A stretch of DNA of 17,097 nt from a virus. The notes beneath the pieces are model-generated. The model was not told the origin of the DNA. It ran no database searches and saw only the letters and a list, made by a program, of their open reading frames with translations. Both the position numbers and the translations under genes were made by a program. The DNA is taken from positions 1-17,097 of the IMG/VR virus record IMGVR_UViG_3300035703_000547; one strand, 5' to 3'. Below are positions 1 through 17,097 of this stretch, piece after piece (the stretch's first letter is position 1; each line of letters opens with the position of its first letter).

Positions 1-127
1 GACTTATACTGATCTAGTCGTTCGTGGCAGTGTAAGAAATGATCTAGGAAGCCGAGCTAGCTCGAGCTACATCAATTTTAATAGCGACTCCGCGCAGAAT
101 TATTCCAGCACAAGAGTCCGAGGGGAT
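1..127. repeat. Exact terminal duplicate of 16971-17097 (circular closure / assembly overlap)
   Basis: Read directly. 'gacttatactgatctagtcgttcgtggcag...caagagtccgaggggat' at 1-127 is identical base for base to 16971-17097. The reading frame of the ORF starting at 16891 continues without a stop into 128-451. Confidence 0.97.
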
Positions 128-451
128 GGATCATCTGCCACTAGCACAAGATACACAACTTCCAATGCATCCTCATTAGGCGGATCTATTGGCTTTACTA
201 ACGGTTCAACTTCAACGAGTAACACATTTAGTTCATTTGAGATTTATGTGCCAAATTATGCAACATCAAATCAAAAAGCCTATGGCATTTCATTAGTCAA
301 TGAAAACAATGATGTAACAGCAGATGCTCTGGCTTTGGCAAATCTTTACAATCAAACAACTGCTATTTCATCATTGACGATTTATCCCGGAAACTCTGTG
401 AACTGGGTTTTAGGTTCATCTTTCTATCTATACGGCATCAAGAACTCATAA
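2..451 (+). CDS. 3' portion of paralog 3 of the tandem beta-rich tail-fibre/receptor-binding-like family (5' end is at 16891 across the circular junction; whole protein about 176 aa)
   Basis: Frame 2 is open from base 2 to TAA 449-451. It translates as TYTDLVVRGSVRNDLGSRASSSYINFNSDSAQNYSSTRVRGDGSS...AISSLTIYPGNSVNWVLGSSFYLYGIKNS. It shares the N-terminal, GDG and C-terminal LYGI blocks with 15813-16391 and 16392-16889. The track lists only the GTG-started fragment 248-451. Confidence 0.75.
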   Translation, partial: TYTDLVVRGSVRNDLGSRASSSYINFNSDSAQNYSSTRVRGDGSSATSTRYTTSNASSLGGSIGFTNGSTSTSNTFSSFEIYVPNYATSNQKAYGISLVNENNDVTADALALANLYNQTTAISSLTIYPGNSVNWVLGSSFYLYGIKNS

Positions 452-460
452 GGAGCAACA

Positions 461-676
461 ATGACAACAGCAATTGAAGTAAACTGTGCAACAGGTGAGG
501 TCATCGAGCGTCCATTGACAGCCGATGAAATCGCAGCCAACGAAGCAGCAGCCGCACAGGCTGAGGCCGAGCGTCTAGCGGCGGAGGCAGAAGCTGCAAC
601 CAAGGCAGCGGCTAAGGCTGACCTATTGGCAAAGCTTGGCATTACTGCAGAAGAAGCGGCTTTGTTACTTGCATGA
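461..676 (+). CDS. Small Ala/Glu-rich helical protein, function unknown (sits between the fibre genes and the endolysin)
   Basis: AGGAG at 451-455 lies 5 nt upstream of ATG 461. The 71-aa product has a long AEAEA-type predicted helix and a C-terminal LGITAEEAALLL. An ATGA overlap couples it to the next gene. Confidence 0.6.
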   Translation: MTTAIEVNCATGEVIERPLTADEIAANEAAAAQAEAERLAAEAEAATKAAAKADLLAKLGITAEEAALLLA

Positions 677-1387: not shown

Positions 1388-1394
1388 TTTTCTC

Positions 1395-2740: not shown

Positions 2741-3015
2741 GAGCCAGTGAGATCCTCTTATCAGCAACAGACACAATCCGCGAGCGTGGCTTATCATACG
2801 GTCACCCTTCAGATAACCTGCAACACACAGCGATGCTCCTCTCAGCATACTTACAGACACCGATACATGACTATCAAGTCGCAGGGATCATGGTGCTTGT
2901 TAAACTTGCGAGGACTAATCAGTCAGCCCAGCACATCGACAACTGGGTCGACCTATGCAGCTATGGCGCACTCGCAGGACAACTAGCAACCGAGGAGAAC
3001 GACCTTTATGTTTAA
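2737..3015 (+). CDS. Conserved phage protein, DUF6378-like
   Basis: The motif pattern is RERGLSYGHPSDNLQHTAMLLSAYL...VAGIMVLVKLAR...HIDNWVDLCSYGAL. This matches my memory of the R-x3-YG / K-L-x-R / D-x2-D-x2-Y signature of that small all-helical phage family. Confidence 0.7.
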   Translation: MRASEILLSATDTIRERGLSYGHPSDNLQHTAMLLSAYLQTPIHDYQVAGIMVLVKLARTNQSAQHIDNWVDLCSYGALAGQLATEENDLYV

Positions 3016-3661: not shown

Positions 3662-3662
3662 C

Positions 3663-3863
3663 ATGGGCTTTGTAGAGTACTTTGATGAGACAACTGGTCA
3701 ATGGATTAACATTGAGGACATTCCTATGATTGACACAGTCAATTGCCAATTATGCAATGAGCCAACAATGGCGAAAGACATAATTGCTGAAATACTTGTA
3801 AAAGATGAGCAATTAATTGTAGGTGCGTGGCAGTGCCGCAAGTGTAAAGCAGTCAATGGCTAG
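3663..3863 (+). CDS. Small zinc-ribbon protein (66 aa)
   Basis: ATG 3663 lies 1 nt after the previous stop. I prefer it to the track start at 3627, which overlaps the upstream gene. There are two CxxC pairs (NCQLCN, QCRKCK). Confidence 0.6.
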   Translation: MGFVEYFDETTGQWINIEDIPMIDTVNCQLCNEPTMAKDIIAEILVKDEQLIVGAWQCRKCKAVNG

Positions 3864-4335
3864 TCAAGCAAGGAAACATAGAGGCTTCCGAACAGAACGC
3901 GTAGTCGCACAGTACCTATCGACTGTGTGGAGTGGTGCAACTGTTGGGAGAGGTAGTGGCAAGGATATTGTCAATGTACCGTTCGATGTTGAGGTCAAAG
4001 CCCGCGCTGGATTTCAACCTCTTGCCTACATTCGTCAATTGAAAGCTCGTACGGCTCTTTCGGGGGAATTGGGCTTTGGAGTGATTAGACTCAACGGACA
4101 AGGTGAAGATGCGCGTGAGTATGCCGCCATCATCCGTCTAGAGGATCTCTTGCCACTACTTATACTAAAGTACGGTCATCTTACTAGCGAACCCACAGAG
4201 GCAGACATTGACCGCTGCACAGGCTGTGGGTCTTACATGATACAGAGGTGCTTGACATGCCAGCCTACGACTACCGATGCACACAATGCGATCTTAGTCA
4301 AGAGATTACCCATGGATGGTACGACAGACCAATGA
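3856..4335 (+). CDS. PD-(D/E)xK nuclease, Holliday-junction resolvase (Hjc/VRR-NUC)-like, with a C-terminal CxxC-x7-CxxC knuckle
   Basis: The motifs are RTERVVAQYL ... GSGKDIVNVPFDVEVKAR (E ... D ... ExK). The C-terminal knuckle is RCTGCGSYMIQRCLTCQ. ATG 3856 gives an 8-nt overlap with the upstream gene and is preferred to track start 3823. Confidence 0.7.
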   Translation: MASQARKHRGFRTERVVAQYLSTVWSGATVGRGSGKDIVNVPFDVEVKARAGFQPLAYIRQLKARTALSGELGFGVIRLNGQGEDAREYAAIIRLEDLLPLLILKYGHLTSEPTEADIDRCTGCGSYMIQRCLTCQPTTTDAHNAILVKRLPMDGTTDQ

Positions 4336-4427
4336 TCCCATGCACATACTGTAATGAGCCTATGGTTAAGGTAATTGCAGCTAATCCAATTCACTTTAAG
4401 GGCAAAGGATGGGGCAAAGATGTTTAG
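4257..4427 (+). CDS. FmdB-family (CxxC_CxxC_SSSS-type) zinc-ribbon protein, 56 aa (not in the ORF track)
   Basis: The translation is MPAYDYRCTQCDLSQEITHGWYDRPMIPCTYCNEPMVKVIAANPIHFKGKGWGKDV. It has the hallmark MPxYxYxCxxC start, a second CxxC and an FKGxGW tail. It overlaps the 3' end of the nuclease gene by 79 nt in another frame. Confidence 0.7.
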   Translation: MPAYDYRCTQCDLSQEITHGWYDRPMIPCTYCNEPMVKVIAANPIHFKGKGWGKDV

Positions 4428-4713
4428 AGATCAATGTGTATTTAAGAAACGCAAGGGTGAGTGTTATCACCAAATAAAGCAAGAAATTAGGCGTTATGAA
4501 ATGCCTAAATGGCGTGGTAGAGCTATAAATCATGTTCATTATTTAAGAGAAACTGAACTGTGCAAAGGTAGGGTTGTAAAAACTGAGATTGCTCAAGTAC
4601 ACATTACGGGTACTGTTGTGGGCTTTCATTCTACTTATCGTAATGTGCTAAAACATGATTACTTTGAGATCGCTGGACAAACATCACGCCATGATTGGTA
4701 CAGTTTTAGATAA
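4420..4713 (+). CDS. Hypothetical basic protein (97 aa) in an AT-rich segment
   Basis: The ORF is open from 4375. ATG 4420 gives an 8-nt overlap with the FmdB-like gene. GC counted in one sampled 60-nt line (4441-4500) is about 35%, against about 47% in a typical structural-gene line. I recognise no family. Confidence 0.5.
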   Translation: MFRDQCVFKKRKGECYHQIKQEIRRYEMPKWRGRAINHVHYLRETELCKGRVVKTEIAQVHITGTVVGFHSTYRNVLKHDYFEIAGQTSRHDWYSFR

Positions 4714-4715
4714 AT

Positions 4716-4740
4716 AGTTATCCACAGAAGTTATCCACAG
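4716..4740. promoter_or_regulatory. Two tandem perfect DnaA-box consensus sequences (TTATCCACA)
   Basis: AGTTATCCACAG occurs at 4716-4727 and again at 4729-4740. The box cores lie at 4718-4726 and 4731-4739, in the same orientation with a 13-bp period. They sit 12 nt upstream of ATG 4752. Confidence 0.6.
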
Positions 4741-4751
4741 GGGGTAAAAAC

Positions 4752-5192
4752 ATGGCGACACGCCCAAGATTACACATGGTGCTTCCCATATATGGTACGC
4801 TAACACAGCAGAGCCTCTCAAAGGCTCACCGCGAGCCCCTTAGGGGCGTAGCTCGCGGGGTGCTAGTAGCTATTGGGATAGCTCTATGCATTATGCCTGA
4901 TGCAGGTGGATCTAAACCAATGCAATATGTAACTTATAAAGAGTATGCATTACATTTATTACATTATGATTATAAGCAAATGAAGTGCTTAGGTAAGCTC
5001 TATGGTAAAGAGAGTGCATGGAATCCTAAAGCTAATAATGGTTCACACTATGGAATACCACAAGGTAAGAGTGAGTGGCTTAAAGACCAAGATGGTTATG
5101 CTCAAGTAAGATGGGGCTTATCATATATAGAGCATAGATACTCAACTCCATGCAATGCTTACGATCATTGGAAGGCACACAATTGGCATTAG
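4752..5192 (+). CDS. Signal-anchored lysozyme-like/lytic transglycosylase-family protein (actinobacterial/APF-like C-terminal domain)
   Basis: The C-terminal domain is CLGKLYGKESAWNPKANNGSHYGIPQGKSEW...VRWGLSYIEHRYSTPCNAYDHWKAHNWH. This matches the remembered pattern C-L-x-x-L-x-x-ES-x-W-N-x-x-A-x-N...YGIPQ...WGL-x-YI-x-x-RY-x-x-PC-x-A-x-x-H...GWY. An N-terminal hydrophobic segment, GVLVAIGIALCIM, is present. GGGGG/SD lies upstream of ATG 4752. Alternative starts are ATG 4776 and GTG 4860. Confidence 0.72.
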   Translation: MATRPRLHMVLPIYGTLTQQSLSKAHREPLRGVARGVLVAIGIALCIMPDAGGSKPMQYVTYKEYALHLLHYDYKQMKCLGKLYGKESAWNPKANNGSHYGIPQGKSEWLKDQDGYAQVRWGLSYIEHRYSTPCNAYDHWKAHNWH

Positions 5193-5512
5193 ATAAGCTG
5201 AACTCAAGGCGCTATAGAGAACAGCGTGAACGAGTGTTCAAGCGTGATGGTCGTGTATGCCAGATCTGTGGTACAGATGAGGGCGAGATGCACATCGATC
5301 ATGTGATACCTCGTAAGGTAGGTGGAGATCACTCATTAGATAATCTCAGAGTGTTATGTAAGTCATGCAACCTGCGCAAGGGTGCGCTCAATGATGGGGT
5401 TTTTTTAGCACGAGCGGCTACCCCCCCTGTCTTTTCAAGCAATATCTCCCCGATGCAGTCCGAGACGATGCTGGACAGTCCTTTTAAGACCCGACCTAAT
5501 CCGAGTCAATGA
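5150..5512 (+). CDS. HNH endonuclease (packaging-associated type)
   Basis: CQICGTDEGEMHIDHVIPRKVGGDHSLDNLRVLCKSCNLRKG contains CxxC, H-x-D-H, N and CxxCN. It lies immediately upstream of the terminase gene. The start is uncertain: ATG 5150 overlaps the upstream gene by 43 nt, and in-frame TTG/CTG codons follow. Confidence 0.9.
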   Translation: MQCLRSLEGTQLALDKLNSRRYREQRERVFKRDGRVCQICGTDEGEMHIDHVIPRKVGGDHSLDNLRVLCKSCNLRKGALNDGVFLARAATPPVFSSNISPMQSETMLDSPFKTRPNPSQ

Positions 5513-6933
5513 CAACTAAGCCTAAAAAGAGCAAAGCCCTACGAGGGGCAACTAAGCCAAGGCTTCACAGTCCACTTCTCAAGGGCGAAAACAAGCTGCA
5601 AGATGTAAAAGATCTATGCAAGATTGTGAACATGGATCTAATGCCATGGCAGGAGTTCGTTCTTAAGGACATGCTCACTGTGGACAAGAAGGGCATGTGG
5701 ATCCGTAAGACAAACCTGATCCTTGTAGCCAGACAGAATGGCAAGACCCACCTAGCCCGCATGCTCATCCTTGCGCACCTGATCAAGTGGAATACCAATG
5801 TGCTAATCATGAGCTCTAATCGCTCTATGGCACTAGACACCTTCAGACAAGTAACTCACCTATTGGAGACCAATGACCACCTCAAAGGATTCGTTAAGCA
5901 GATCAGACACGCCAACGGCACTGAAAGCATTGAGATGCTCTCTGGAGCAAGGCTTGATGTTGTTGCAGCAACTAGAGACGGAAGTCGAGGTCGCTCAGTC
6001 AACGGACTTCTCTACATCGATGAAGTCCGAGAGATCACAGAAGATGGATTCAGAGCTGCAACTCCTACAACTAGAGCTCACCCAAACAGTCAGACACTTC
6101 TTACCTCGAATGCGGGAGATGCTTTCAGCACTGTACTCAATGACCTACGGGAACGAGCCATCGACTACCCACCAAAGTCATTCGGATTCTACGAATACTC
6201 AGCACCTCAATACTGCAAGATAGACGATCGCAATGCATGGGCTATGGCTAACCCCTCAATGGGGTACACAATTACCGAGGATGCGATTGAAGAGGCTATT
6301 GCTACTTCGCCGATTGAAAACACTCGTACTGAGACTCTTTGCCAATGGATCGACTCCCTAAGTAGCCCATGGCCTCATGGCATTCTAGAGGAGACCAGCG
6401 ATAGCACTCTGGAGATGGCTGTAGGTGCTTATACAGTATTCGGCTTTGATGTTAGCCCTTCAAGGCGCAATGGGTCTCTTATTGCCGGTCAATTGCTCCC
6501 AGATGGTCGGATCGGTATCGGTATCTTAGAGACTTACAGCTCGCAGGTAGCCATCGATGAGTTAAAGATGGCGGCAAGTATAAAGGCATGGTGTGACATA
6601 TATAAGCCTCGCATTGTCTGCTTTGACAAGTACGCCACCCAGACTATTGCAGATCGGTTAATGAATAGTGGTGTTGTCTGCGAAGATGTCAGTGGGCAGC
6701 AGTTCTACAAAGCTTGTGGAGATCTCTTAGAAGGCTTGGTCAATCATCGAGTAGTTCACAATGGACAGGCAGAGTTCATTCAGCAGATGAACAACTGTGC
6801 AGCTAAGGTGAACGATTCTGCTTGGCGCATCATTAAGCGTAAGTCAGCAGGTGACATCTCTGCTCCAATTGGCATTGCCATGGCGGTAAGCAAGTTAATG
6901 ATCCCTCAGCCTAAGCCACAGATTTACACTTAG
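5509..6933 (+). CDS. terL: Terminase large subunit
   Basis: Walker A-like VARQNGKTHL, Walker B plus catalytic Glu LLYIDEVRE, and a C-terminal RNase-H-like nuclease region (FGFDVSPS). The product is 474 aa. An ATGA overlap links it to the HNH gene, and the portal gene follows. Confidence 0.93.
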   Translation: MTTKPKKSKALRGATKPRLHSPLLKGENKLQDVKDLCKIVNMDLMPWQEFVLKDMLTVDKKGMWIRKTNLILVARQNGKTHLARMLILAHLIKWNTNVLIMSSNRSMALDTFRQVTHLLETNDHLKGFVKQIRHANGTESIEMLSGARLDVVAATRDGSRGRSVNGLLYIDEVREITEDGFRAATPTTRAHPNSQTLLTSNAGDAFSTVLNDLRERAIDYPPKSFGFYEYSAPQYCKIDDRNAWAMANPSMGYTITEDAIEEAIATSPIENTRTETLCQWIDSLSSPWPHGILEETSDSTLEMAVGAYTVFGFDVSPSRRNGSLIAGQLLPDGRIGIGILETYSSQVAIDELKMAASIKAWCDIYKPRIVCFDKYATQTIADRLMNSGVVCEDVSGQQFYKACGDLLEGLVNHRVVHNGQAEFIQQMNNCAAKVNDSAWRIIKRKSAGDISAPIGIAMAVSKLMIPQPKPQIYT

Positions 6934-6967
6934 ACACGCCCTAGCATGTTGTCTAATTACTTGACAA

Positions 6968-8107
6968 ATGCTACACTTTATGACTATGGGTCTATTCCGC
7001 AAAGCTGAAGCAACATCCAATGAGAATGAGCGTTCATCGCTTAAAGCGCAATACGCCCCTCAAATTTTAGGCGATCAATTCCTGCCTTACAATAATTACT
7101 ACACAGTATCTTCAATGGCTCGTCAAGATGCCATGACTGTGCCATCGATTAAGCGATGCCGTGATCTTATCGCGGGAACAATCGCGACAATTCCGTTGGA
7201 GTATTACAAGAAATCAACTGGTGAGCATATTGCTGCACCGCGATGGGTTGAACAGCCTTCACTTAATCAGCCACGCTTTGTAACAATCCTATGGACTGTT
7301 GACAGCTTGCTTATGTACGGCACAGCTTACTGGCAGATCAAAGAGACATATCAAGAAGATGGAAGAATGGCTCGCGCTGAGTGGATTGCTAACACTCGCG
7401 TAACATTCGACACAGATTTCCCTTCTACTATTGTTACTCAATACTATGTCGATGGAATACCTGTACCAATGTCAGGCATTGGATCACTTATTACATTTCA
7501 AAAGGATGAAGGTATCCTTAACACTTCTGCTCGCACTATTCAAAGCGCGATCGATATTCACAGAGCAGCAGCGATTGCCGCGCAAACTCCAATGCCTAGC
7601 GGATACATCCGCAACAACGGAGCAGATCTAGATCCTAAAGAAGTACAAGGATTATTAGCTGCATGGAAAAACGCTCGCCTTAATCGTGCTACAGCTTACT
7701 TGACTTCTACTCTTGAATATAATGCAACATCATTTTCACCTAAAGACATGATGTACAATGAGGCTATCCAAAATAGCGCAACAGAAATTGCTCGCGCGTG
7801 TGGAGTCCCACCTTATTATCTTTCAGCTGATCAAAATACAACGATGACTTATGCCAATGTGCAAGATGAACGCCGTCAGTTTATCTGGATGATCCAGCCT
7901 TACATTTCAGCAATAGAAGCTCGTCTTTCAATGGATGACATTTCTACTGCTGGTCATTATGTCAAATTCGCAGTAGATGACACATTCTTACGCACTAACC
8001 CTATGGATCGCTTGCTAGTAATCGAGAAGATGCTTGCACTTGGTCTAATCACTACAGAGCAAGCCATGGAAATGGAAGATCTATCTCCTAACGGAATGGA
8101 AGAATAA
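6968..8107 (+). CDS. Portal protein (HK97-family)
   Basis: Portal-typical blocks are present: SIKRCRDLIAGTIATIPLEYY, LLMYGTAYWQI and EIARACGVPPYYL...YANVQDERRQFIWMIQPYISAIEARL. The position after terL also fits. Alternative in-frame starts are 6980 and 6986 (MGLFRK...). Confidence 0.88.
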   Translation: MLHFMTMGLFRKAEATSNENERSSLKAQYAPQILGDQFLPYNNYYTVSSMARQDAMTVPSIKRCRDLIAGTIATIPLEYYKKSTGEHIAAPRWVEQPSLNQPRFVTILWTVDSLLMYGTAYWQIKETYQEDGRMARAEWIANTRVTFDTDFPSTIVTQYYVDGIPVPMSGIGSLITFQKDEGILNTSARTIQSAIDIHRAAAIAAQTPMPSGYIRNNGADLDPKEVQGLLAAWKNARLNRATAYLTSTLEYNATSFSPKDMMYNEAIQNSATEIARACGVPPYYLSADQNTTMTYANVQDERRQFIWMIQPYISAIEARLSMDDISTAGHYVKFAVDDTFLRTNPMDRLLVIEKMLALGLITTEQAMEMEDLSPNGMEE

Positions 8108-9654
8108 TGACAACCCTATACATCGAAGCAGCATCAATCGAGTGCAGCGAAGATCGCCGTGAGATCTCAGGAAAGATTGTCCCAATGGGAACAGGCGAGA
8201 TTGGCAATACTAATCTCGGAGCTTATGTCTTTGAGGCTGGATCAATTGAAATCGCTGACCCATCTAAGATCAAATTGTTATCACAGCATGACATGAAAAA
8301 GCCAATCGGTCGCATGACTGCTTCAGAAGTTCGCGAAGATGGACTTTATGCAACATTCAAATTAAGCCGTAGCACAGGTGGTAATGATGCACTTGTTATG
8401 GCGCAGGAAGGTCTTGTCACAGGTCTTAGCATTGGTGCAGAAGTAATTGCATCAAAGCCATCACGCAATGGTCACACAGTCGTTACAGCGGCTTCTCTAA
8501 AAGAGGTCAGCCTTGTCACAGAAGCGGCATTTAAGTCAGCCGCAATTACAGAAATTCGCGCAGAAGAAAAATCTGTTGTCGAAGAAAACCCAACTACAGA
8601 AAGCGAGACAGCCGTGGAAGAAACCACTCCAGCAGTCGAAGCAACACCTTCAGTAGAGGCAGCGGCTGTCGAGGCTGCTCGCCCAACTGTTACAGCAATG
8701 TACTACACAACACCACGCATTAACACAGCTCCAGAAGTATTTTTGGAGAATGCAGTACGGGCACAGTTCGGTGATGAGAATGCTCGTCAATACCTACGCG
8801 CTGCTTCAGATACAGACACAACAGATGTTGCAGGTCTTGTACCAACACGCCAGCTAACAGAGATCATCAACAATAAGTCAACTTCAGGTCGACCATCAAT
8901 TGATGCAATTTCAGCAGGCACACTTCCAGATGCAGGATTCAAGTTCCAGATCCCACGCGTTAAGGCTGTTCCAACTGTTGCAGAGACAGCAGAGAAGGCA
9001 GCATTCTCAGATACTCAGGTCGAGATTGAGTACCTAGATGTTGATGTCAAGAAGTACGCAGGAATGCAACTATTCGATGTTGAAGTCCTTGACCGCACAT
9101 CACCTGCATTCTTTGCAGAGCTACAATCACTCATGGCAGATGCTTATGCTAAGGCAACAAATGTTGCAGTACGCACAGCAATCCAGACAGGTGCTTCAGC
9201 AGATGGCACAGCAATCACACTTCCATGGGATGGTGCTGAAATGGCTGGCTTTATTGCTCGCGCTTCAGACTCAATCTACACAAACACACTTCGCTTTGCA
9301 CAAAGCGTAATTGTTTCTCCAACACAATGGAGCAACATCATGGGCATGGTAGACGGTCAGAATCGTCCTCTATTCATCGCTTCACAGCCACAAAACGCAG
9401 CAGGTTCAGTATCACAGAGCCTACGCGGATCTCTACTAGGTCTTGATCTATATGTTGACTACTCACTCACAGGTGTAGCTGACGGATCAATCATCGTAGT
9501 AAATCGCGATTCATACACATGGTACGAGTCACCACGCCTACAGCTACGCGCTGACAAGGTCGGTACTGGTCAGGTAGAAGTCGGATACTACGGCTATGGC
9601 GCAATCGCCACCAAGGCAGCAGCAGGCGCGTTCAAGTTCAACAACGCAGCTTAA
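8107..9654 (+). CDS. Fused prohead (HK97 S78-type) protease - major capsid protein (HK97 fold)
   Basis: N-terminal residues 1-160 or so carry protease blocks: LSQHDMKKPIGR, EDGLYATFKL, EGLVTGLSIGA and LKEVSLVTEAAF. A Glu/Thr/Pro/Ala linker follows (EENPTTESETAVEETTPAVEATPSVEAAAVEAA). The C-terminal 320 aa or so carry capsid blocks: GLVPTRQLTEII..., KKYAGMQLFDVEVLDRTSPAFFAEL and GTGQVEVGYYGYGA. It is a single uninterrupted 515-codon ORF. Confidence 0.85.
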   Translation: MTTLYIEAASIECSEDRREISGKIVPMGTGEIGNTNLGAYVFEAGSIEIADPSKIKLLSQHDMKKPIGRMTASEVREDGLYATFKLSRSTGGNDALVMAQEGLVTGLSIGAEVIASKPSRNGHTVVTAASLKEVSLVTEAAFKSAAITEIRAEEKSVVEENPTTESETAVEETTPAVEATPSVEAAAVEAARPTVTAMYYTTPRINTAPEVFLENAVRAQFGDENARQYLRAASDTDTTDVAGLVPTRQLTEIINNKSTSGRPSIDAISAGTLPDAGFKFQIPRVKAVPTVAETAEKAAFSDTQVEIEYLDVDVKKYAGMQLFDVEVLDRTSPAFFAELQSLMADAYAKATNVAVRTAIQTGASADGTAITLPWDGAEMAGFIARASDSIYTNTLRFAQSVIVSPTQWSNIMGMVDGQNRPLFIASQPQNAAGSVSQSLRGSLLGLDLYVDYSLTGVADGSIIVVNRDSYTWYESPRLQLRADKVGTGQVEVGYYGYGAIATKAAAGAFKFNNAA

Positions 9655-9672
9655 TCTAGCCAACTAAGTACG

Positions 9673-9710
9673 CTCTGAGGGGTAGTAGCCCTCTACCCCT
9701 CAGAGTCTTT
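9673..9710 (+). terminator. Strong hairpin, probable intrinsic terminator/attenuator after the capsid gene
   Basis: CTCTGAGGGGTAG (9673-9685) pairs perfectly with CTACCCCTCAGAG (9693-9705). That gives a 13-bp stem and a 7-nt loop, followed by TCTTT. It lies 19 nt after the capsid stop. Confidence 0.7.
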
Positions 9711-9724
9711 AGAAAGGAAAAGGA

Positions 9725-10294
9725 ATGGCACTAACTACAGTAGCAGAGCTTCGATCAACACTCGGAGTCGGTACGCTGTACCCAGATGCCACCTTGCAGG
9801 AAGTGTGCGACGCTACAGATGCAGTCCTACTTCCAATGTTATGGGCTAACACAGAATTTGCTATTGGTCACTCTAATGTTGGCACAGTAGGCACAATGTA
9901 CTTCGACAAGAATGTAGAGATGATTTACTATGTGGGTCAGACTGTAGTTATCACAAATGCAGGCTCTCACTTCAATGGCAGCAAGACAATCACAGGTGTT
10001 CATGGTCGCACTTTTACAGTTACTACAAACCATGTAACCGATACGCCTTACCACCCATTTAATCCTTTTGCTAATGTCGCAGCATCAACCTATGTTGATT
10101 GGGCAGAAGATAAAGCAGTCCAGCAAGCAGCTTTGATGATATCTGTTGAAATCTGGCAAGCGCGTACAGCCACCCTTTCGGGCAGTAACGCTGTCGATTT
10201 CCAGCCAAGCCCTTACCGAATGAGCGCACAGCTTCTCGCTAAGGTGCGAGGATTGATTGCACATGCGCTGAGCCCTAACTCGATGGTGGGATAA
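9725..10294 (+). CDS. Head-tail adaptor/connector (gp6 / SPP1 gp15-like) protein
   Basis: The N-terminus MALTTVAELRSTLGVG...DATLQEVCDATDAVLLPML is typical of gp6-like connectors. It is the first gene after the capsid gene. AAAGGA lies upstream of the ATG. Confidence 0.6.
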   Translation: MALTTVAELRSTLGVGTLYPDATLQEVCDATDAVLLPMLWANTEFAIGHSNVGTVGTMYFDKNVEMIYYVGQTVVITNAGSHFNGSKTITGVHGRTFTVTTNHVTDTPYHPFNPFANVAASTYVDWAEDKAVQQAALMISVEIWQARTATLSGSNAVDFQPSPYRMSAQLLAKVRGLIAHALSPNSMVG

Positions 10295-10689
10295 TGCCAC
10301 CTGTAGCCATAACGACACTCAGAACCACTTTAGCGACTGCTCTAGTCGATAACGCCAAGTGGCAGACCTTTGCATTTCCACCTGCAACAGTCCTTGCTAA
10401 CTCTGTGATCGTGTCTCCAGATGATCCTTATCTGACACCTAATAACAACAGCCAGATTTCTATTAGCCCGATGGCTAACTTCAAGATCATCATGACAGTT
10501 CCACTCTTTGACAATGAGGGAAACCTTAACGGCATTGAAGACTTCATTGTTGGCGTGTTCACTAAGTTAAATGCCAGCGGCTTGACCTATAATGTAAGCG
10601 CAATAAGCGCACCTAGTATTCTCAATGTGGCTTCAGGTGAACTGTTGTCCTCTGAGATGTCGATATCAATCCTAACGAGTTGGAGCTAA
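10294..10689 (+). CDS. Neck protein (head closure / tail terminator-like)
   Basis: The call rests on synteny between the adaptor and the major tail protein, a TAATG coupling, and a 131-aa beta-rich product. I see no diagnostic motif. Confidence 0.45.
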   Translation: MPPVAITTLRTTLATALVDNAKWQTFAFPPATVLANSVIVSPDDPYLTPNNNSQISISPMANFKIIMTVPLFDNEGNLNGIEDFIVGVFTKLNASGLTYNVSAISAPSILNVASGELLSSEMSISILTSWS

Positions 10690-10691
10690 GC

Positions 10692-10790
10692 ATGACCGAG
10701 TGGGAAAAAGAGCAGGAAGCTTTCTTGATCAAGATCGGTCAAGTTAAGCCAGCAACGCCTAAGCCAGTAACTAAGAAAGACGAGGAATAA
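10692..10790 (+). CDS. Possible micro-ORF (32 aa, charged)
   Basis: The translation is MTEWEKEQEAFLIKIGQVKPATPKPVTKKDEE. It exactly fills the gap between 10689 and 10794. There is no other support. Confidence 0.3.
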   Translation: MTEWEKEQEAFLIKIGQVKPATPKPVTKKDEE

Positions 10791-10793
10791 CCA

Positions 10794-11201
10794 ATGGCTG
10801 TATTTCTAAACAATGGCGTGGTTTTGACAGTCAATGCAGTGGACTTGTCTGACCATGTGACAGCAGTAACAATTAACCGCACATTCGATGAACTAGAAGT
10901 GACAGCAATGGGTGACTCAGGTCACAAGTATGTCAAGGGTCTAGAAGCATCATCAATCACAATCGATTTCCTAAATGACACAGCAACAAGCGAAGTCCTA
11001 CAGACTTTGCAGGCTGCATGGGGAACTTCTGTAACAGTAACAGTCAAGCAGAACTCAGGCGCGACAGCTGCTACAAATCCTCTTTACACAATGACATGCC
11101 TAGTCAACAACACAACCGACATCAATGGTTCAGTTGCAGACCTAAGCACACAGTCAGTCACATGGAATGTGAACGGCACAATTACAATCGCAACAGCGTA
11201 A
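10794..11201 (+). CDS. Major tail (tube) protein
   Basis: The product is 135 aa and beta-rich. The pattern VVLTVNAVDLSDHVTAVTINRTFDELEVTAMGDSGHKYVKGLEASSITIDF...NPLYT is typical of small siphovirus tube proteins. It sits directly upstream of the chaperone/frameshift pair. Confidence 0.65.
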   Translation: MAVFLNNGVVLTVNAVDLSDHVTAVTINRTFDELEVTAMGDSGHKYVKGLEASSITIDFLNDTATSEVLQTLQAAWGTSVTVTVKQNSGATAATNPLYTMTCLVNNTTDINGSVADLSTQSVTWNVNGTITIATA

Positions 11202-11223
11202 TCAACTAACAAAGGGGCAAACC

Positions 11224-11481
11224 ATGGCAAGACTAAAGATAGTTCGACAAGATGGAAGCGTACTAGAAGGAGAAATCACACCTGCTGTTGAATACTCCTT
11301 CGAACAGTACGCTAAAAAGGGCTTCCACAAGGCGTTCCGCGATGAAGAAAAGCAGAGCGATGTCTATTGGTTAGCATGGGAAGTAACACGCAGGTCAGGT
11401 GAGCCTGTCAAGCCTTACGGGATGGAGTTTATTGAGACACTTAAAAGTGTTTCGGTTGAAGACTCCGACCCTTTAGCTTAA
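11224..11481 (+). CDS. Tail assembly chaperone (gpG-like)
   Basis: An 85-aa acidic protein after the tube gene. It ends with a canonical slippery heptamer 6 nt before its stop. Confidence 0.65.
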   Translation: MARLKIVRQDGSVLEGEITPAVEYSFEQYAKKGFHKAFRDEEKQSDVYWLAWEVTRRSGEPVKPYGMEFIETLKSVSVEDSDPLA

Positions 11482-11660
11482 AGCGCGATCTTCCATTCAC
11501 CTACCTAATTGCTAGGCTAAGCATTAGGTTAGGGATCGCGCCACAGCAGTTATTAGAATTAGATCGAGACATGCTTAATGCATTGTTTCAAGGTCTCACA
11601 GATGAAGCGAAGGAGCAACGAGATGCCAACAGAAGTCGTGGGCGCGGTCGCACTTCGTAA
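11224..11660 (+). CDS. Tail assembly chaperone -1 frameshift product (gpGT-like); join(11224..11475,11475..11660)
   Basis: After a -1 slip on C_CCT_TTA (11469-11475), the -1 frame stays open for 62 more codons. These read ...PFSLKRDLPFTYLIARLSIRLGIAPQQLLELDRDMLNALFQGLTDEAKEQRDANRSRGRGRTS, ending at TAA 11658-11660. I verified this codon by codon. Confidence 0.55.
11469..11541 (+). promoter_or_regulatory. Programmed -1 ribosomal frameshift signal: slippery heptamer plus downstream bulged hairpin
   Basis: The X_XXY_YYZ heptamer C_CCU_UUA lies in the zero frame at 11469-11475, followed by a 7-nt spacer. The outer stem is GCGCGATC (11483-11490) pairing with GATCGCGC (11534-11541). The inner stem is CCTACCTAAT (11500-11509) pairing with ATTAGGtTAGG (11523-11533), 10 bp with one bulge. 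Confidence 0.55.
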
Positions 11661-12243
11661 AGCATTAAAGCAATATGCTCCAGACCTAGCAAAAGAGTTA
11701 ACAAAAGATTTAGGGGCAGTCTTAAAGCCTATTGTTAATGAAGCTCGGTCTTATGTCCCTATTGCTTCACCAATGTCAGGATGGGCTAAACGAGAAACTT
11801 CTCGGGGTGGACGATTTCCTAAATATGATGTTAAGGAAATTAGATCGGGCATTATCTACAAGACCACACCATCTAAGCCTAACCGAGCGGGTTTCGTTAA
11901 TACTGTACGCATCCAAAATAAATCTATGCAGGGTGCAATCTATGAAACTGCCGGTCGCAAGAATGGGCAAGGTCAGGATTGGGTCGGACCTCGCGCAGGT
12001 GGTGCATCTAAAGGTGTTTCCCGCTCAAACAATCCTTATGCTGGCAACCAGTTCATTTCTAACTTAGGTCAGCTCTATGGTCCTAACAAGAGAGGCGATC
12101 ATCGCATGATGGGTCGCTTGATCTTTAGAGCATGGGCAAACACTCAAGGTAAAGCCAATGCTTCTGTGTTCAAGGCTATTGAAAACACAACTACTAAGTT
12201 CAATCGCCGCACAGCGATGGTCGATGTTAGGAGAGCAGCATGA
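11623..12243 (+). CDS. HK97 gp10-like tail-completion/neck family protein (206 aa) in an atypical position
   Basis: AGGAG at 11611-15 lies 7 nt upstream of ATG 11623, preferred to track start 11578. The N-terminus VVGAVALRKALKQYAPDLAKELTKDLGAVLKPIVNEARSYVP and the internal GAIYETAGR resemble the gp10-family pattern (...L-x-K-L ... A-x-x-x-x-P ... vEfGT). Confidence 0.45.
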   Translation: MPTEVVGAVALRKALKQYAPDLAKELTKDLGAVLKPIVNEARSYVPIASPMSGWAKRETSRGGRFPKYDVKEIRSGIIYKTTPSKPNRAGFVNTVRIQNKSMQGAIYETAGRKNGQGQDWVGPRAGGASKGVSRSNNPYAGNQFISNLGQLYGPNKRGDHRMMGRLIFRAWANTQGKANASVFKAIENTTTKFNRRTAMVDVRRAA

Positions 12244-14138
12244 GCAATGTAGCAATTAACATCGCAGCAGAGTTCACAGGTAAAAAGGCTTTCAAGCAAG
12301 CAGAGACTTCGACAGATAAACTTAGCAAGAATGTCAAAGGTCTTGCTAAGAGTTTGCTTGCTGTTTACAGCGCACAGAAGATTCTCTCTTACGCAAAGGC
12401 ATCTGTTAAGGCTTTTGCAGAAGATGACAAGGCAGCCACAGCATTAGGTACAACTCTTAAAAATCTTGGGCTTGCTTACGGATCAAACATCGGCACAGTC
12501 AACGGCTACATTAACCGCCTTGAGATGCAGACAGGTGTGCTTGATGACGAGCTTCGCCCTGCTATGGATCGATTCCTTCGTGCCACATTATCAGTTACTA
12601 AGTCTCAAGAATTACTCAACCTTGCTCTTGACATTTCAGCAGGTACAGGCAAAAGCCTTACTCAGGTTTCACAAAGTTTACAGAAGGCTTACCTTGGTCA
12701 GACTCAGGCAATTGGTCGCTTAGGTGTAGGACTTACCAAGGCTGAACTTACAAGCTCATCCTTTGAGGAGATTCAGCTACGCTTAACAACACTCTTTGCC
12801 GGTCAAGCAACAGCGGCAGCTGATACCTATGCAGGTTCGCTTGCTAAGTTAACTGTTGCGGGCAACAACGCCAAAGAGACTATTGGTGAAGGTCTAGTCG
12901 ATGCCATTAAGACCGCATCTGGATCTGAAACAATCGATCCGCTTATCAAGGGCATCGATAGAATTGCTAATGCTATTGCTGGTCTTGCGCGTGAAACAGG
13001 CGAGTTTATTGCCATCACTAAATCGATCTTTGACTTTGATCTATTCGCTAAAGACCTAAACGCCTTCAAGGGTATGGGCAACATCTCGATGACTATCTCT
13101 GGTCAAGTCGATAACTCAGCTGCTAAGGCAGCACAAAAGACACAGACTAAAGCAGCAAAGGATTCTGCTAAGGCACAGAAGGAAAGCCTCAAGCTTGCTA
13201 AGGCTAGAGCAGTCTTTGACTTACAAAAGATCCAGATCGAGGCAGCCCTCAAGGGTAAAATCTCAGAGGAAGATAAGATCCGCTTAAAGTTAATGCAAGC
13301 GATCGAGGAAGAAAACCTCACTAATGTTGAGAAGTATCAGAAGGCATTAGAGAAGGCACAGGAAAAGACAAAAGAGTTAACAGATCTTCTAGCCACAGTT
13401 AAGACATTAGAACTCAAAGATCCTTTCGGTGCTTGGTCGGTTGATCCTCTCACTGCATCAATCAACGCTTTGACTGCTTCGATGTTCTCTGTTGGTACAC
13501 AGATTCAGGCTAATGGTCGAGAGTGGTCATCCTTTGCTAACTCTGTAGCGAACACAGTCATTAGACCTAACCTCAGCGAATGGTCATCATCTTTCAGCGC
13601 AGCGGCAGCATCAGCATCAGCAGCAGTCGGTTCGGCTAACGCGGCACTGGCATCAAGTACAGCAGCATCATCAACCGCAGCGGCAGCCGCAGCTAAGGCA
13701 AGTGCAGAAGCGATCGCGGCGGCTAACAAAGCAACAGCGGACGCAATAGCCGCAGCTGAAAAAGCACAAGGCGAAGCGTTATCTAAACTCAAAGCAGATG
13801 CAGCCGCTACAACGGCATCTATTAAAGCAGATCAAGAAAAGGCAGCCGCAGATGCACAAGCAGCCGCGGATGCTCTAGATAAGCAAATAGAGGCAACGCT
13901 GGCGGCTATTCGAGCTAAGGCAGCACAGGAAGCAATCGCTGCTTCATCCGTTACTGGCAATGTTGATACAACAACAATTGCAGGAATCGTTGCTGCTTCT
14001 GGTGGCACTGTATCGAGTGGATCAAATGTTGAGATTACTGTAAACACAGGCATAGGAGATCCTAACGCTATCGCTGAGCAGATCCAGAAAGTCCTAGAAG
14101 ATGCTTACCAACGCGGATCATTGTTGAGGGCAGAATGA
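12240..14138 (+). CDS. Tail tape measure protein
   Basis: The product is 632 aa, long, helical and rich in Ala/Lys/Glu, with an extended Ala-rich low-complexity stretch (about nt 13590-13930). It lies after the chaperone genes and is ATGA-coupled on both sides. Confidence 0.85.
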   Translation: MSNVAINIAAEFTGKKAFKQAETSTDKLSKNVKGLAKSLLAVYSAQKILSYAKASVKAFAEDDKAATALGTTLKNLGLAYGSNIGTVNGYINRLEMQTGVLDDELRPAMDRFLRATLSVTKSQELLNLALDISAGTGKSLTQVSQSLQKAYLGQTQAIGRLGVGLTKAELTSSSFEEIQLRLTTLFAGQATAAADTYAGSLAKLTVAGNNAKETIGEGLVDAIKTASGSETIDPLIKGIDRIANAIAGLARETGEFIAITKSIFDFDLFAKDLNAFKGMGNISMTISGQVDNSAAKAAQKTQTKAAKDSAKAQKESLKLAKARAVFDLQKIQIEAALKGKISEEDKIRLKLMQAIEEENLTNVEKYQKALEKAQEKTKELTDLLATVKTLELKDPFGAWSVDPLTASINALTASMFSVGTQIQANGREWSSFANSVANTVIRPNLSEWSSSFSAAAASASAAVGSANAALASSTAASSTAAAAAAKASAEAIAAANKATADAIAAAEKAQGEALSKLKADAAATTASIKADQEKAAADAQAAADALDKQIEATLAAIRAKAAQEAIAASSVTGNVDTTTIAGIVAASGGTVSSGSNVEITVNTGIGDPNAIAEQIQKVLEDAYQRGSLLRAE

Positions 14139-15376
14139 CTTGGTTACCAGAATGGCGAGTGACAGTAGGAGATGATGTCTATACCACTGTCACCTCTGTT
14201 TCCTTTTCCTCTGGTCGCTTAGACATCGATCGCCAGTGCGCTGCTGGCTATTGTCAAGTCGAGATCATTAACACAGATGGCTCACCCTTTACCATCTCAG
14301 TTACAGAGCCAATTACTTTAGAGCTTAAAGATAGTGCTGGAAACTATGTCACTGTCTATGGTGGGCAGGTATCGGACTTCTCCATAGGTGTACGCAGCCC
14401 AGAAGAATCTGGTTACATCACTTATGGCAAATTGCTCGGAGTGGGCTACTTAGCAAAACTTACTAAGTCTGTTTATAACACAGCACTTCCAGAGGGTTTA
14501 GACGGCGCACAGATCGCAGCTATTGTCGATGGAGTCCTAAGCCTGTCATGGGCTGAGATAGATCCAACAGTCACATGGGCTGCCTATCCAGCAACTACGA
14601 CATGGGCAGATGCAGAGTCTTACATTGGCACAATCGATGAAGGCTTCTATACCATGAACAGCCTTGCAGCATCGGCTACGGCTAAGTCCAACAGCCTGGT
14701 AGATCAGATAGCCAATAGCGCATTAGGTCAGATCCATGAGGAGAAGGATGGTTATGTCTCCTATGACGATGCAGACCATCGCAGCGACTACCTAGCAGCC
14801 AATGGCTTCACTACTATCGATGCAGCTTATGCAACCCCTAGCAGTATCAGGACAATCACACAGATCGCTCGTATCCGTAACAGCCTTGTCTACAAGTACG
14901 GCACAGCATACGGCTCTGAGTACAATACCTCTGATAGCGATTCTATTGCCCTCTACGGCTTGTATCAGAAGTCCTTTGAGTCCAACATCAAGAATCTTGC
15001 AGACATCGCTAATATCGGCTCTAGAGAGCTTAATTTGCGCAAGAGTCCCAGAGGCTCACTAGAGGCGATTACCTTTCGCCTAGATAATCCAGACCTGCCT
15101 AGTGTGGATCTAGATAACCTCATCAACATATTTTTTGGTCAGCCTGTGCTTATCACTAACCTACCTAGCAACCTGCTCGGTGGTCAGTTCGATGGCTTTG
15201 TGGAGAACATAGCACTGAGAGCAACTCCTACCTTTGTAGACATTACGCTCTACATCTCAGCAACAGACTTCTCACTGAGCTTGACTCAATGGAATGAAGT
15301 ATTGCCAGCCTCACTTATCTGGACTGGCGTAAATGGTACACTTACTTGGACAAATGCGACAGGAGCTTTAACCTAA
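14135..15376 (+). CDS. Distal tail protein / minor tail protein
   Basis: It is the first gene after the tape measure. The N-terminus WRVTVGDDVYTTVTSVSFSSGRLDIDRQCAAGYCQVEIINTDGSPF resembles actinophage Dit-type minor tail proteins. Confidence 0.6.
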   Translation: MTWLPEWRVTVGDDVYTTVTSVSFSSGRLDIDRQCAAGYCQVEIINTDGSPFTISVTEPITLELKDSAGNYVTVYGGQVSDFSIGVRSPEESGYITYGKLLGVGYLAKLTKSVYNTALPEGLDGAQIAAIVDGVLSLSWAEIDPTVTWAAYPATTTWADAESYIGTIDEGFYTMNSLAASATAKSNSLVDQIANSALGQIHEEKDGYVSYDDADHRSDYLAANGFTTIDAAYATPSSIRTITQIARIRNSLVYKYGTAYGSEYNTSDSDSIALYGLYQKSFESNIKNLADIANIGSRELNLRKSPRGSLEAITFRLDNPDLPSVDLDNLINIFFGQPVLITNLPSNLLGGQFDGFVENIALRATPTFVDITLYISATDFSLSLTQWNEVLPASLIWTGVNGTLTWTNATGALT

Positions 15377-15813
15377 TGGCAACTACTACGACTAACTTCG
15401 GGTTCGACATCCCACAGAGTTCAGACCTCGTTAAGGATGGCGCAACAGCGATTGCAGAGCTGGGTCAGGACATCGATACCAAGTTCGCAGGTCTTACGGT
15501 CAATGCGCAGACTGGCACAACTTACACAGCAGTCAAGGCAGACGGACTTAACGCTATTGTCACAATGGACAACGCATCGGCTAATACTTTCTACATTCCA
15601 ACAGATGCCACATACGCTTTCCCTACTGGCACTACCCTCATTGTGTACATGAAGGGTGCAGGAGTTACAACCATTACTGCAACAACCCCCGGAACTACCA
15701 CAGTAGTTAGCGCAGGTGCAGTTATTGGCTCACCCGTCCTTGCTCGTTACAAGTCAGCAGCTTGCATCAAGATCGCTGCTAACTCATGGATCGTAGTGGG
15801 TGCTGTTGCCTAA
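15376..15813 (+). CDS. Small minor tail/fibre-like protein (145 aa)
   Basis: It is TAATG-coupled, and AGGAG at 15361-65 supports ATG 15376, preferred to track start 15346. The N-terminus MATTTTNFGFDIPQSSDLVKDGATAIAELGQDIDT resembles the conserved N-terminal motif of actinophage tail fibre/minor tail proteins. The remainder is Thr/Ala/Gly-rich and beta-like. Confidence 0.55.
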   Translation: MATTTTNFGFDIPQSSDLVKDGATAIAELGQDIDTKFAGLTVNAQTGTTYTAVKADGLNAIVTMDNASANTFYIPTDATYAFPTGTTLIVYMKGAGVTTITATTPGTTTVVSAGAVIGSPVLARYKSAACIKIAANSWIVVGAVA

Positions 15814-16391
15814 TGCTTAATTCACTTATTGGGATTATTGCCTCTAGTGGTGGGGCGGCAGGTGGTGGCGGGGCTTCTTACGAGTCCATCGCTTCGCAGA
15901 CTTTAGGATCTAATGCTAGCTCAATCACTTTTAGTAGTATTGCGGCAGATTGGCAACATCTACAATTGCGCTACCTTTTAAGAACAACGGGAACAAGTAC
16001 GGGTTTTGATGAAGTGCGTGTAAGATTAAATGGCTCTACGAGCGCTATTCATTCATCTCATAATTTAAGAGGTGATGGCTCAACAATCCAAGCAAATGAT
16101 TCTACCTCTGCCAGTGTGAGAATTGTGTTGGCAAATGTCGCTCCAAGAAACGGAAACACTAGCAACATTTTTGGCGTAGGCATTTTAGATTTTCACGATT
16201 ATAGAACTGCTGGAAAGAACAGAGTTATGCGTTCTTTTGCGGGTGGAGACTTAAACGGGTCTGGTGCTGTTTTATTGCACAGTGGAGCTGCTTATTCTAC
16301 TACTGCACTCACTAGCATTGAACTTTACCCAGATGCTGACCAATGGCTTGCGGGATCTGTCTTTTCACTATACGGAATCAAGGGAGCGTAA
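15813..16391 (+). CDS. Paralog 1 of the tandem beta-rich tail-fibre/receptor-binding-like family (192 aa, with an extra hydrophobic + Gly-rich N-terminal extension)
   Basis: TAATG-coupled ATG at 15813, preferred to track start 15786. It reads MLNSLIGIIASSGGAAGGGGA, then SYESIASQTLGSNASSITFSSIAADWQHLQL...LRGDGST...ALTSIELYPDADQWLAGSVFSLYGIKGA. Confidence 0.7.
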   Translation: MLNSLIGIIASSGGAAGGGGASYESIASQTLGSNASSITFSSIAADWQHLQLRYLLRTTGTSTGFDEVRVRLNGSTSAIHSSHNLRGDGSTIQANDSTSASVRIVLANVAPRNGNTSNIFGVGILDFHDYRTAGKNRVMRSFAGGDLNGSGAVLLHSGAAYSTTALTSIELYPDADQWLAGSVFSLYGIKGA

Positions 16392-16889
16392 ATGCCAGCA
16401 ACATACGAGCCAATCGCTACCACGACTTTAGGTAGTGCGGCAGCCACGATTTCATTTACTTCAATTACTTCTGCCTATACAGACCTTCGCCTAGTGCTAA
16501 CAGGCACACACGAAACAACAGCAGCAACAGTCAGAATGCAAGTTAATTCGGATACTGGGACAAATTACTCCTACACAGAATTAACAGGCGATGGAGCAAC
16601 AGCTACAAGCGCAAGAGGGTCAACATCTGCTCGCATTAACTGTGGTAATGCTAACTTTAATAACACGCTACCAAGCCTCATAACTGTTGATTGGTTTTCT
16701 TATGCAGGTTCAACCAATAAGACCTGCTTGGTGACTACCAGCCAAGATCGTAATGGCTCAGGTGTTGTTTATCGTACTGTTGGTTTATGGCGTAGCACTT
16801 CTGCTATTACTTCGATCCAGATGTTTCCATCTACAGGCAACTTTGCCACAGGCACAACAGCCACACTCTACGGAATACTAAAGGCATAA
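16392..16889 (+). CDS. Paralog 2 of the tandem beta-rich tail-fibre/receptor-binding-like family (165 aa)
   Basis: The ATG lies directly after the TAA of paralog 1. It reads MPATYEPIATTTLGSAAATISFTSITSAYTDLRLVL...LTGDGAT...AITSIQMFPSTGNFATGTTATLYGILKA. Confidence 0.7.
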   Translation: MPATYEPIATTTLGSAAATISFTSITSAYTDLRLVLTGTHETTAATVRMQVNSDTGTNYSYTELTGDGATATSARGSTSARINCGNANFNNTLPSLITVDWFSYAGSTNKTCLVTTSQDRNGSGVVYRTVGLWRSTSAITSIQMFPSTGNFATGTTATLYGILKA

Positions 16890-16890
16890 G

Positions 16891-17097
16891 ATGGCAAACA
16901 CATACACACTTATCTCAAGCAATGTGCTGAGCAGTTCAGCTGCAAGCGTGACTTTTTCTGCTATTCCTGCGACTTATACTGATCTAGTCGTTCGTGGCAG
17001 TGTAAGAAATGATCTAGGAAGCCGAGCTAGCTCGAGCTACATCAATTTTAATAGCGACTCCGCGCAGAATTATTCCAGCACAAGAGTCCGAGGGGAT
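16891..17097 (+). CDS. 5' portion of paralog 3 (continues at 128-451 through the circular junction)
   Basis: ATG 16891 lies 1 nt after the paralog 2 stop. It reads MANTYTLISSNVLSSSAASVTFSAIPATYTDLVVRGSV... and is in phase with the frame-2 ORF that ends at 451. Confidence 0.75.
   Translation, partial: MANTYTLISSNVLSSSAASVTFSAIPATYTDLVVRGSVRNDLGSRASSSYINFNSDSAQNYSSTRVRGD
16971..17097. repeat. Second copy of the 127-bp terminal duplicate
   Basis: Identical to 1-127. This implies a circular or circularly permuted molecule with 16,970 bp of unique sequence. Confidence 0.97.

Follow-up and report, generated by a model that had tools for sequence, protein, structure and literature searches.

Phage receptor-binding heads are, to our knowledge, almost always homotrimers. 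Here we describe a locus that may depart from this design, located in a 17,097-nt stretch of viral DNA (IMG/VR virus record IMGVR_UViG_3300035703_000547, positions 1 to 17,097; hereafter the window). At the distal end of its tail genes lie three tandem paralogous genes, which we call A, B and C, followed by a small fourth gene, D. We give an even chance to the reading that these four genes constitute a conserved distal-tail module of phages infecting freshwater planktonic Actinobacteria, in which A, B and C would form a 1:1:1 heteromeric adsorption head anchored through A. Lectin-like beta-sandwich modules of distal tails are a known kind; a description of an obligate, position-specific three-paralog set with a single anchor and a conserved fourth gene was not found in the libraries and papers searched.

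The globular head of C1q (gC1q, chains A, B and C) provides one point of comparison: there, as at this locus, three tandem paralogous genes encode compact all-beta domains, and a pseudo-threefold head with three different faces, as in C1q, is what we propose for the phage proteins. C1q also has homotrimeric relatives carried on collagen-like shafts, and the phage family has a structural relative with collagen repeats among the predicted viral structures of BFVD. However, the phage proteins have no collagen stalk, only one anchored chain and no TNF/C1q structure among the best 50 PDB hits; the resemblance would be one of mode and not of family. The best solved structural neighbours are lectins of the ConA/LamG type (PilC, LamG, neurexin LNS and the galectins), which are two-sheet beta-sandwiches of similar size and serve in glycan or surface recognition, as the phage proteins may. 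This likeness is distant, with a template-modelling (TM) score of 0.42-0.44, an identity of 13-16% and no Pfam match, and conserved sugar- or Ca2+-binding residues are not established. The lactococcal phages TP901-1 and Tuc2009 (BppU-BppA-BppL) and p2 (ORF18) likewise deploy several small proteins encoded after Dit/Tal, with carbohydrate-binding beta-sandwich heads and a separate anchor; whereas those components are homotrimers unrelated to one another, A, B and C share one fold as paralogs with position-specific orthology, and no sequence or structure match was found between the Bpp or ORF18 proteins and the window paralogs. Finally, single-chain proteins typified by P0333 are homologous to A, B and C, have three family domains per unit, are mostly encoded distally in tail modules and are predicted to be rigid bodies. 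They differ in being one chain that arose by an independent triplication, in having a small open reading frame (ORF) before rather than after the gene, and in lacking the A-type arm.

The A-B-C-D array

The first 127 bases of the window are identical to bases 16971-17097; the contig is thus circular with a length of 16,970 bp, and gene C is read continuously through the junction. The array comprises the following features:

15813..16391 (+), paralog A (c1), 192 aa, predicted family beta-sandwich domain with an N-terminal arm (ORF, type-A ortholog group, array position 1)
15813..15878 (+), N-terminal arm of A (MLNSLIGIIASSGGAAGGGGAS), a short hydrophobic segment and a Gly/Ala-rich linker, putative tether
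16392..16889 (+), paralog B (c2), 165 aa, bare family domain (ORF, type-B group, AlphaFold2 model)
16891..17097 (+), 5' part of paralog C (c3; type-C group), with the reading frame continuing over the circular junction
1..451 (+), 3' part of paralog C, in continuous frame through the 127-bp terminal overlap, giving 176 aa in total
461..676 (+), gene D, 71 aa, a conserved small Ala-rich protein 3' of C and the fourth member of the module

An initial annotation made from the letters alone had reported three tandem paralogs here. ORF translation, with C followed across the junction, returns its coordinates and lengths exactly, the three collinear sequence blocks that it quoted are all present in the proteins, and the terminal overlap is as it described. 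The genes are tightly packed: the ATG of A overlaps the upstream stop codon as TAATG, that of B immediately follows the TAA of A, and C starts 1 nt past the stop of B. Homology of the three proteins is clear from BLASTP (A/B, 37% identity over 174 aa, E 4e-20; B/C, 31%, E 7e-15; A/C, 28%, E 2e-12) and from hhalign (probability 100%). The stretches between the blocks had been judged unalignable by eye; the BLASTP alignments are nevertheless full length, and the paralogy is less patchy than that judgement implied. The claim that no DNA identity remains holds, the best blastn match being 29 nt at E 0.003 and codon-aligned nucleotide identity 41-47%, and the reading of the duplications as old and maintained is supported. 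A G+C content of about 32-43% in sampled lines of the array had also been taken as consistent with modular exchange; the measured values are 44.0% (A), 44.8% (B) and 40.7% (C) against 46.4% for the genome, a difference too marginal for that purpose. At about residues 70-83 of A (window 16020-16060), the sequence is LNGSTSAIHSS where nearly all other A, B and C proteins have FN(S/G)D(T/S)xxNYS.

We scanned 80 related IMG/VR loci and other contigs with a hidden Markov model (HMM) of the family and with type-specific HMMs. The exact order A-B-C is found in 73 of 85 loci, and A-B alone in three, each of which is cut by a contig end. Where more copies occur they are added as sets: one locus (L066) is A-B-C-A-B-C, and a second (L070) has six copies, namely a clear A-B-C and then three more diverged ones that type weakly (A, A, C) and probably represent a second triplet. 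A third, on a 98-kb contig with a sheath gene (L084), reads ...B,[C-FN3-A],B,C, the bracketed unit being a fusion through a fibronectin type III (FN3) domain. Average-linkage clustering of 227 distinct proteins yields three groups, and membership follows the place in the array in 66/67, 68/69 and 68/69 cases, with truncated loci accounting for the exceptions. Identity in a family-wide alignment is 45-51% within and 30-35% between types. From stop to start, A and B are separated by -1 to +4 nt at 71 of 73 loci, and B and C by -8 to +4 nt at 68 of 72. In the rare cases where copies lie 360-580 nt apart, the interval holds HNH homing endonucleases; these free-standing genes sit precisely at the A/B or B/C boundary of six loci, with the paralogs abutting elsewhere:

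3845-4290 of L017, HNH insertion
9633-10001 of L030, HNH insertion
2254-2628 of L040, HNH insertion
3836-4199 of L043, HNH insertion
4267-4672 of L050, HNH insertion
8109-8693 of L067, HNH insertion

The full A-B-C-D set is present in the cultured phage E7 (L083, 7423-9253) and also in a different genome type (L024), where A bears an FN3 domain. As judged by these comparisons, A, B and C are a fixed set with position-specific orthology and not loose duplicates.

The near-invariant number, order and type of the copies, together with their duplication as whole triplets, disfavour interchangeable host-range cassettes. Three alternative receptor-binding modules that broaden host range were one of two hypotheses of the initial annotation; stated more fully, the genes would be redundant or alternative receptor-binding proteins, each sufficient by itself, that broaden or switch host range. 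Such a role would suit the tail-distal position, the fair variability of the proteins between phages (43-49% mean identity in a separate comparison) and the endonucleases between copies, which suggest local recombination. However, only A has an arm, leaving B and C with no evident independent route onto the virion, and the same triplet is shared by genomes of 17 kb, 39 kb and 98 kb whose remaining content is unrelated. We regard this alternative as very improbable.

Of the 77 loci with room for gene D, 75 have a homolog that follows the last family copy at a distance of at most 600 nt, and the cultured Planktophila phage E7 has one too. Mean column identity in the alignment of D is 64%, higher conservation than any of the three paralogs shows; the protein has an N-terminal IEVNCxTGEVxERPLTAEEIA and a C-terminal LGITAEEAxLLL motif. 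Searches of Pfam, PDB sequences and NCBIfam found no match for it. D would be an obligate partner of the paralogs and, as a guess, might serve as an assembly factor or a coiled-coil stalk.

Predicted fold, the A-type arm and natural fusions

An AlphaFold2 (AF2) model of B, built on a 50-sequence alignment, has 11 strands, a mean predicted local distance difference test score (pLDDT) of 90.3 and a predicted TM score (pTM) of 0.85. The initial annotation had suggested a compact jelly-roll or TNF/C1q-like head; the model bears out a compact beta-rich sandwich, for which jelly-roll is broadly right, whereas TNF/C1q is absent from the best 50 Foldseek hits of the model against 350,542 PDB chains. 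In that search two matches fall below E 1e-3, both to the lectin module of PilC, a minor pilin of Streptococcus sanguinis (PDB 7oa7/7oa8; E 2e-4 and 5e-4, probability 1.0, at the TM and identity given above). The next neighbours are laminin-G (LamG), neurexin LNS, galectins and similar ConA-like sandwiches, with TM scores of 0.32-0.44 across the top hits; the fold is neither tail-tube-like nor Dit-like by the same comparison. Among the predicted viral structures of BFVD there are 112 matches below 1e-3 with TM scores up to 0.88; some of these proteins consist of the domain by itself (170-200 aa), and in the others it is one part of a larger chain. The larger relatives are annotated with a collagen triple-helix repeat, fibronectin type III, a glycine-rich domain, a lambda Stf repeat or tail fibre (TM 0.75-0.88). 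From the model, each paralog would be a single 11-strand beta-sandwich of about 165 aa with a weak and remote likeness to ConA/LamG lectins.

The three proteins differ most visibly at their N-termini. The hydrophobic and Gly-rich extension that had been noticed on the first copy alone proves to be a property of type A in all 64 adjacent full-length triplets examined; it is about 20 residues long, and B and C have no arm but start at the first beta-strand (M-x-x-T-Y). Among the best 120 hits, 24 protein clusters have no such arm on the A-type domain; instead, an FN3 domain joins it covalently to a preceding C-type domain, giving C-FN3-A fusions, and in L084 such a fusion connects two successive triplets. 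The restriction of the arm to A, and its exchange for a covalent FN3 link in the fusions, point to A as the tethered subunit. In many relatives a C-terminal Gly_rich_2 domain (PF21722) has been added to B or C.

Apparent A-B and B-C fusions were considered as Rosetta-stone evidence and rejected, because a Q stands exactly at the junction in all but one of 30; this looks like a TAG stop read as Gln by the gene caller, making the A-B, B-C and A-B-C fusions artefacts. The single A-B-C call (P0276) was rejected on the same grounds, with Q exactly at the junction, and the sole two-domain fusion without a junction Q (P0289) is a frameshift call. The clusters concerned are:

P0121, P0122, P0270-P0299, P0276 and P0256, apparent fusions, artefactual (junction Q, except P0289)

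We count as genuine only the C-FN3-A and Gly_rich_2 fusions.

Single-chain triples and the proposed head

A distinct line of evidence comes from the P0333-like single chains of about 525 aa, in which linkers of 3-4 residues connect three family domains. At 90% identity these natural proteins fall into more than 100 clusters, Tara Oceans samples included. The AF2 model of P0333 (76 full-length homologs) has a pLDDT of 93.2 and a pTM of 0.92 with high confidence through both linkers; thus, the three domains are predicted as one rigid body. Homology of these domains (D1, D2 and D3) to A, B and C is supported by hhalign with a probability above 99%, and scores are 222-279 among A, B and C against 104-193 to D1-D3. 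As A, B and C are closer to each other than to the fused domains, the fused triple represents an independent triplication, and a one-to-one mapping of A/B/C onto D1/D2/D3 was rejected on this basis. Foldseek searches of the three-domain model against the PDB returned only noise (porins and ushers; TM at or below 0.15). An AF2 run on concatenated A, B and C was abandoned, as MAFFT had placed A-B rows on the B-C segment and rows of C with Gly_rich on A.

Among other chains, P0132 has three family domains that come after a fibre-like N-terminus and a poly-Gly stretch, P0126 has four and P0123 six. Residues 273-320 of P0132 also give a sub-threshold Pfam match, perhaps by chance, to PRD1 P2_N, a viral receptor-binding domain (E 0.009). 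Of the five contigs examined, four have their P0333-like genes at the distal end of a tail module; in one of these, 2.1 Mb long, they are the final genes of a prophage. A 38-kb contig (L085) has two three-domain units:

10001-11548 of L085, family gene with three domains, flanked by capsid and head-tail connector genes
17636-20743 of L085, second three-domain unit, at the N-terminus of a 1035-aa protein immediately after the tape measure

An ORF of 77-83 aa always immediately precedes the triple-domain gene (L085, L086, L099, L100 and L101); it is similar to gene D in size and adjacency, with no detectable relation to that 71-aa gene.

On the most economical reading, the fold would function in groups of three, and in the window the separately encoded, co-translated A, B and C would take the three places as an A:B:C heteromer. 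One copy of each would pack laterally against the other two, giving a compact head of three domains and about 55 kDa, a heterotrimer with pseudo-threefold symmetry. Its common core or its interfaces would come from the N- and C-terminal strands, which are conserved in all paralogs, whereas the central loops, which vary, would face outwards. The N-terminal arm of A would be the sole tether of the head to the tail tip, its likely docking partner being the 145-aa minor-tail-like protein encoded just upstream, and the head would mediate adsorption to a glycan of the host envelope. The second hypothesis of the initial annotation, an obligate heterotrimer in the style of C1q anchored by the first copy, remains a proposal that fits the fixed triplet, the translational coupling, the C-FN3-A fusions and the single-chain triples. 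More tentatively, and with somewhat less than even confidence, we suggest that the family as a whole is an adsorption-head fold whose working unit is always three domains, realized interchangeably as homotrimers on trimeric shafts, as the obligate A/B/C heterotrimer of three coupled genes (in the window and in the cultured Planktophila phages) or as single-chain pseudo-trimers.

The main rival is that A3, B3 and C3 are separate homotrimers at fixed, different places of the tail tip, either stacked as A3-B3-C3 or at distinct baseplate positions in the manner of BppU/BppA/BppL; in phages with two triplets a stack would continue as C3-FN3-A3. This arrangement predicts the same fixed order, coupling, position-specific orthology and duplication as a unit, and explains the comparative data equally well. 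The C-FN3-A fusions suit a beads-on-a-string trimeric fibre, and single-domain relatives are fused to collagen and lambda Stf repeats, which are normally homotrimeric shafts. On the other hand, B and C have no adaptor segment with which to dock on another trimer, and triples with linkers of 3-4 residues are predicted as a rigid compact monomer; AF2 monomer runs rarely give such a prediction for domains that need three chains to co-fold. Moreover, the first and last strands are usually neighbours in the ConA/LamG fold class, and a topology of this kind would place both termini at one pole and hamper linear stacking through short linkers. Taken together, we hold separate homotrimers to be unlikely, while treating them as a serious competitor.

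Several points weigh against the A:B:C head. The evidence for a fixed set is equally expected from three different homotrimers with fixed places. The loci were collected with a B-dominated profile, by which B-less lineages could be hidden. Distance correlations among A, B and C are moderate at most (0.37-0.58); the mirror-tree signal is weak to moderate and not decisive. The pTM of the fused homolog is a measure of predicted compactness, not of pseudo-threefold geometry, and this homolog stems from an independent triplication. The lectin similarity is weak and no ligand site was identified. Window A lacks the N-x-D-x-x-x-N-Y motif that other A, B and C proteins retain; the motif is nearly invariant in the alignments and possibly has a metal- or ligand-binding role. 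Lastly, with a triple-domain gene between capsid and connector genes in L085, the wider family is not strictly tail-associated.

Genome context, family distribution and hosts

The window is a very small (16,970 bp) siphovirus-like genome, and we assigned the following features outside the array:

673-1101, putative lysin, 142 aa, after gene D (S-D-H...A-I-D and H-C-H motifs)
1588-2361, metallo-phosphoesterase in the early region (PHROG 221, E 5e-59)
5150-5512, HNH endonuclease gene, overlapping the start of the large terminase gene
5509-6933, large terminase (PHROG scan)
6968-8107, portal (PHROG scan)
8107-9654, protease-major-capsid fusion in one 515-aa gene (PHROG 80 at residues 39-179, and PHROG 2263, major capsid)
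10794-11201, major tail protein (PHROG 4574)
12240..14138 (+), putative tape-measure protein, 632 aa (named for its place behind the major tail protein gene, its size and a coiled-coil composition rich in Ala)
14135..15376 (+), 413-aa protein in the Dit/Tal position (by position, directly 3' of the putative tape measure)
15376..15813 (+), minor-tail/fibre-like protein, 145 aa (PHROG 8780 'minor tail protein', E 6e-8; PHROG 16053 'tail fiber protein', E 3e-3)

The order of the late genes is therefore major tail protein, putative tape measure, 413-aa protein, 145-aa minor-tail-like protein, A, B, C, D and putative lysin, placing the array at the distal end of the tail morphogenesis module, a position that the relatives keep. 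The putative tape measure has no match in the PHROG scan and its label follows from the features listed, and the 413-aa protein has none in PHROG, Pfam or PDB sequences. Of 61 loci with room for it, 44 have a homolog of the 413-aa protein 5' of the triplet; a homolog of the 145-aa protein lies directly 5' of A in 52 of the 69 that have room. The 145-aa gene has stop/start overlaps with both neighbours, and the match of its product to PHROG 8780 covers the C-terminal part of that profile. Profile searches with the 145-aa and 413-aa proteins and with D against PDB sequences, Pfam and NCBIfam yielded nothing usable. The array had been placed at the tail-fibre locus before the lysis genes; the tail-distal location stands, whereas the conserved gene D intervenes before the putative lysin. 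From its motifs, the 142-aa product of that gene is a putative peptidoglycan peptidase of the LAS/M15 type and likely an unannotated kind of endolysin; its sole PHROG match is PHROG 32486, which has no assigned function. Scans of the window for tRNAs, Rfam families, promoters and terminators gave nothing relevant, with no terminator-like site within the array.

This context also bears on the view that the module is structural and not adsorptive, serving as a decoration complex, a tail-tip cap or an adaptor ring (e.g., a pseudo-hexamer of two A-B-C sets beneath the tail tube). In that case the real site of receptor binding would be elsewhere, for instance in the 145-aa or 413-aa protein or in the Gly_rich_2 domains of relatives. 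No recognizable Dit or Tal was found in the 17-kb genome by Pfam, PHROG and PDB sequence searches. The positions of both L085 units, between capsid and connector genes and at the N-terminus of the 1035-aa protein after the tape measure, and the base-like location of the family domain N-terminal to Gly_rich_2 in many relatives, are in line with it. Yet the fold resembles neither tail-tube proteins nor Dit by Foldseek, the lectin-type neighbours and tail-fibre-annotated structural relatives point to binding, and the genes are the last of the tail module, after a minor-tail-like gene, where binding proteins are usually encoded. We consider a purely structural role rather improbable and retain the adsorption head anchored through A as our preferred reading.

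That the family is unnamed, as the initial annotation had stated, is borne out for all three paralogs, which have no Pfam match above cut-off, no PHROG match (E up to 0.01) and no NCBIfam match (E up to 0.1). Lowering the Pfam threshold to E up to 1 brings up only a sub-threshold match of residues 3-60 of B to AdHead_fibreRBD, the receptor-binding fibre head of fowl adenovirus, which at E 0.014 scores 15.6 bits where the cut-off is 27 and may be due to chance; no Pfam lectin model or model of the Laminin_G/Lectin_leg type matches any of the three. B, the only copy searched against PDB sequences, has no match there at E up to 10. The family is nonetheless large: a word-indexed search found at least 7,861 homologs, and when all of 1.84 billion cluster representatives (50% identity) were compared with a profile, 34,750 matched at E up to 1e-3 and 23,973 of them at E up to 1e-10. 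In contrast, a scan of 185,579 species genomes of bacteria and archaea (one each) gave only 12 loci, all in metagenome-assembled genomes and none in a prophage of an isolate. This is a very large, essentially viral and aquatic family that curation has missed.

Among 50,697 deposited phage genomes, only two match the family: OX376640, recorded as LanE43-AprE7, and OX376641, which we take to be F5. Both belong to the cultured 'Ca. Planktophila' phages of Kavagutti et al. 2023 (PMC10202952), in the covered text of which no proteomic or binding data were found. With these as the sole matching deposited genomes, the host group is very likely the freshwater planktonic Actinobacteria. A near relative of the window (L001) carries WhiB.

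'Ca. Nanopelagicales' are among the most abundant freshwater bacteria, and a family in the presumed adsorption module of their phages is of ecological relevance. An obligate three-paralog head, if true, would be a different design, with three binding surfaces free to evolve independently on one anchor. It would also make this a genuinely heteromeric phage receptor-binding protein, analogous to C1q and built on an unrelated fold. The two cultured carriers, LanE43-AprE7 and F5, make this hypothesis directly testable. Naming the A-B-C-D module would lead to better annotation and host-range inference for thousands of metagenomic phages.

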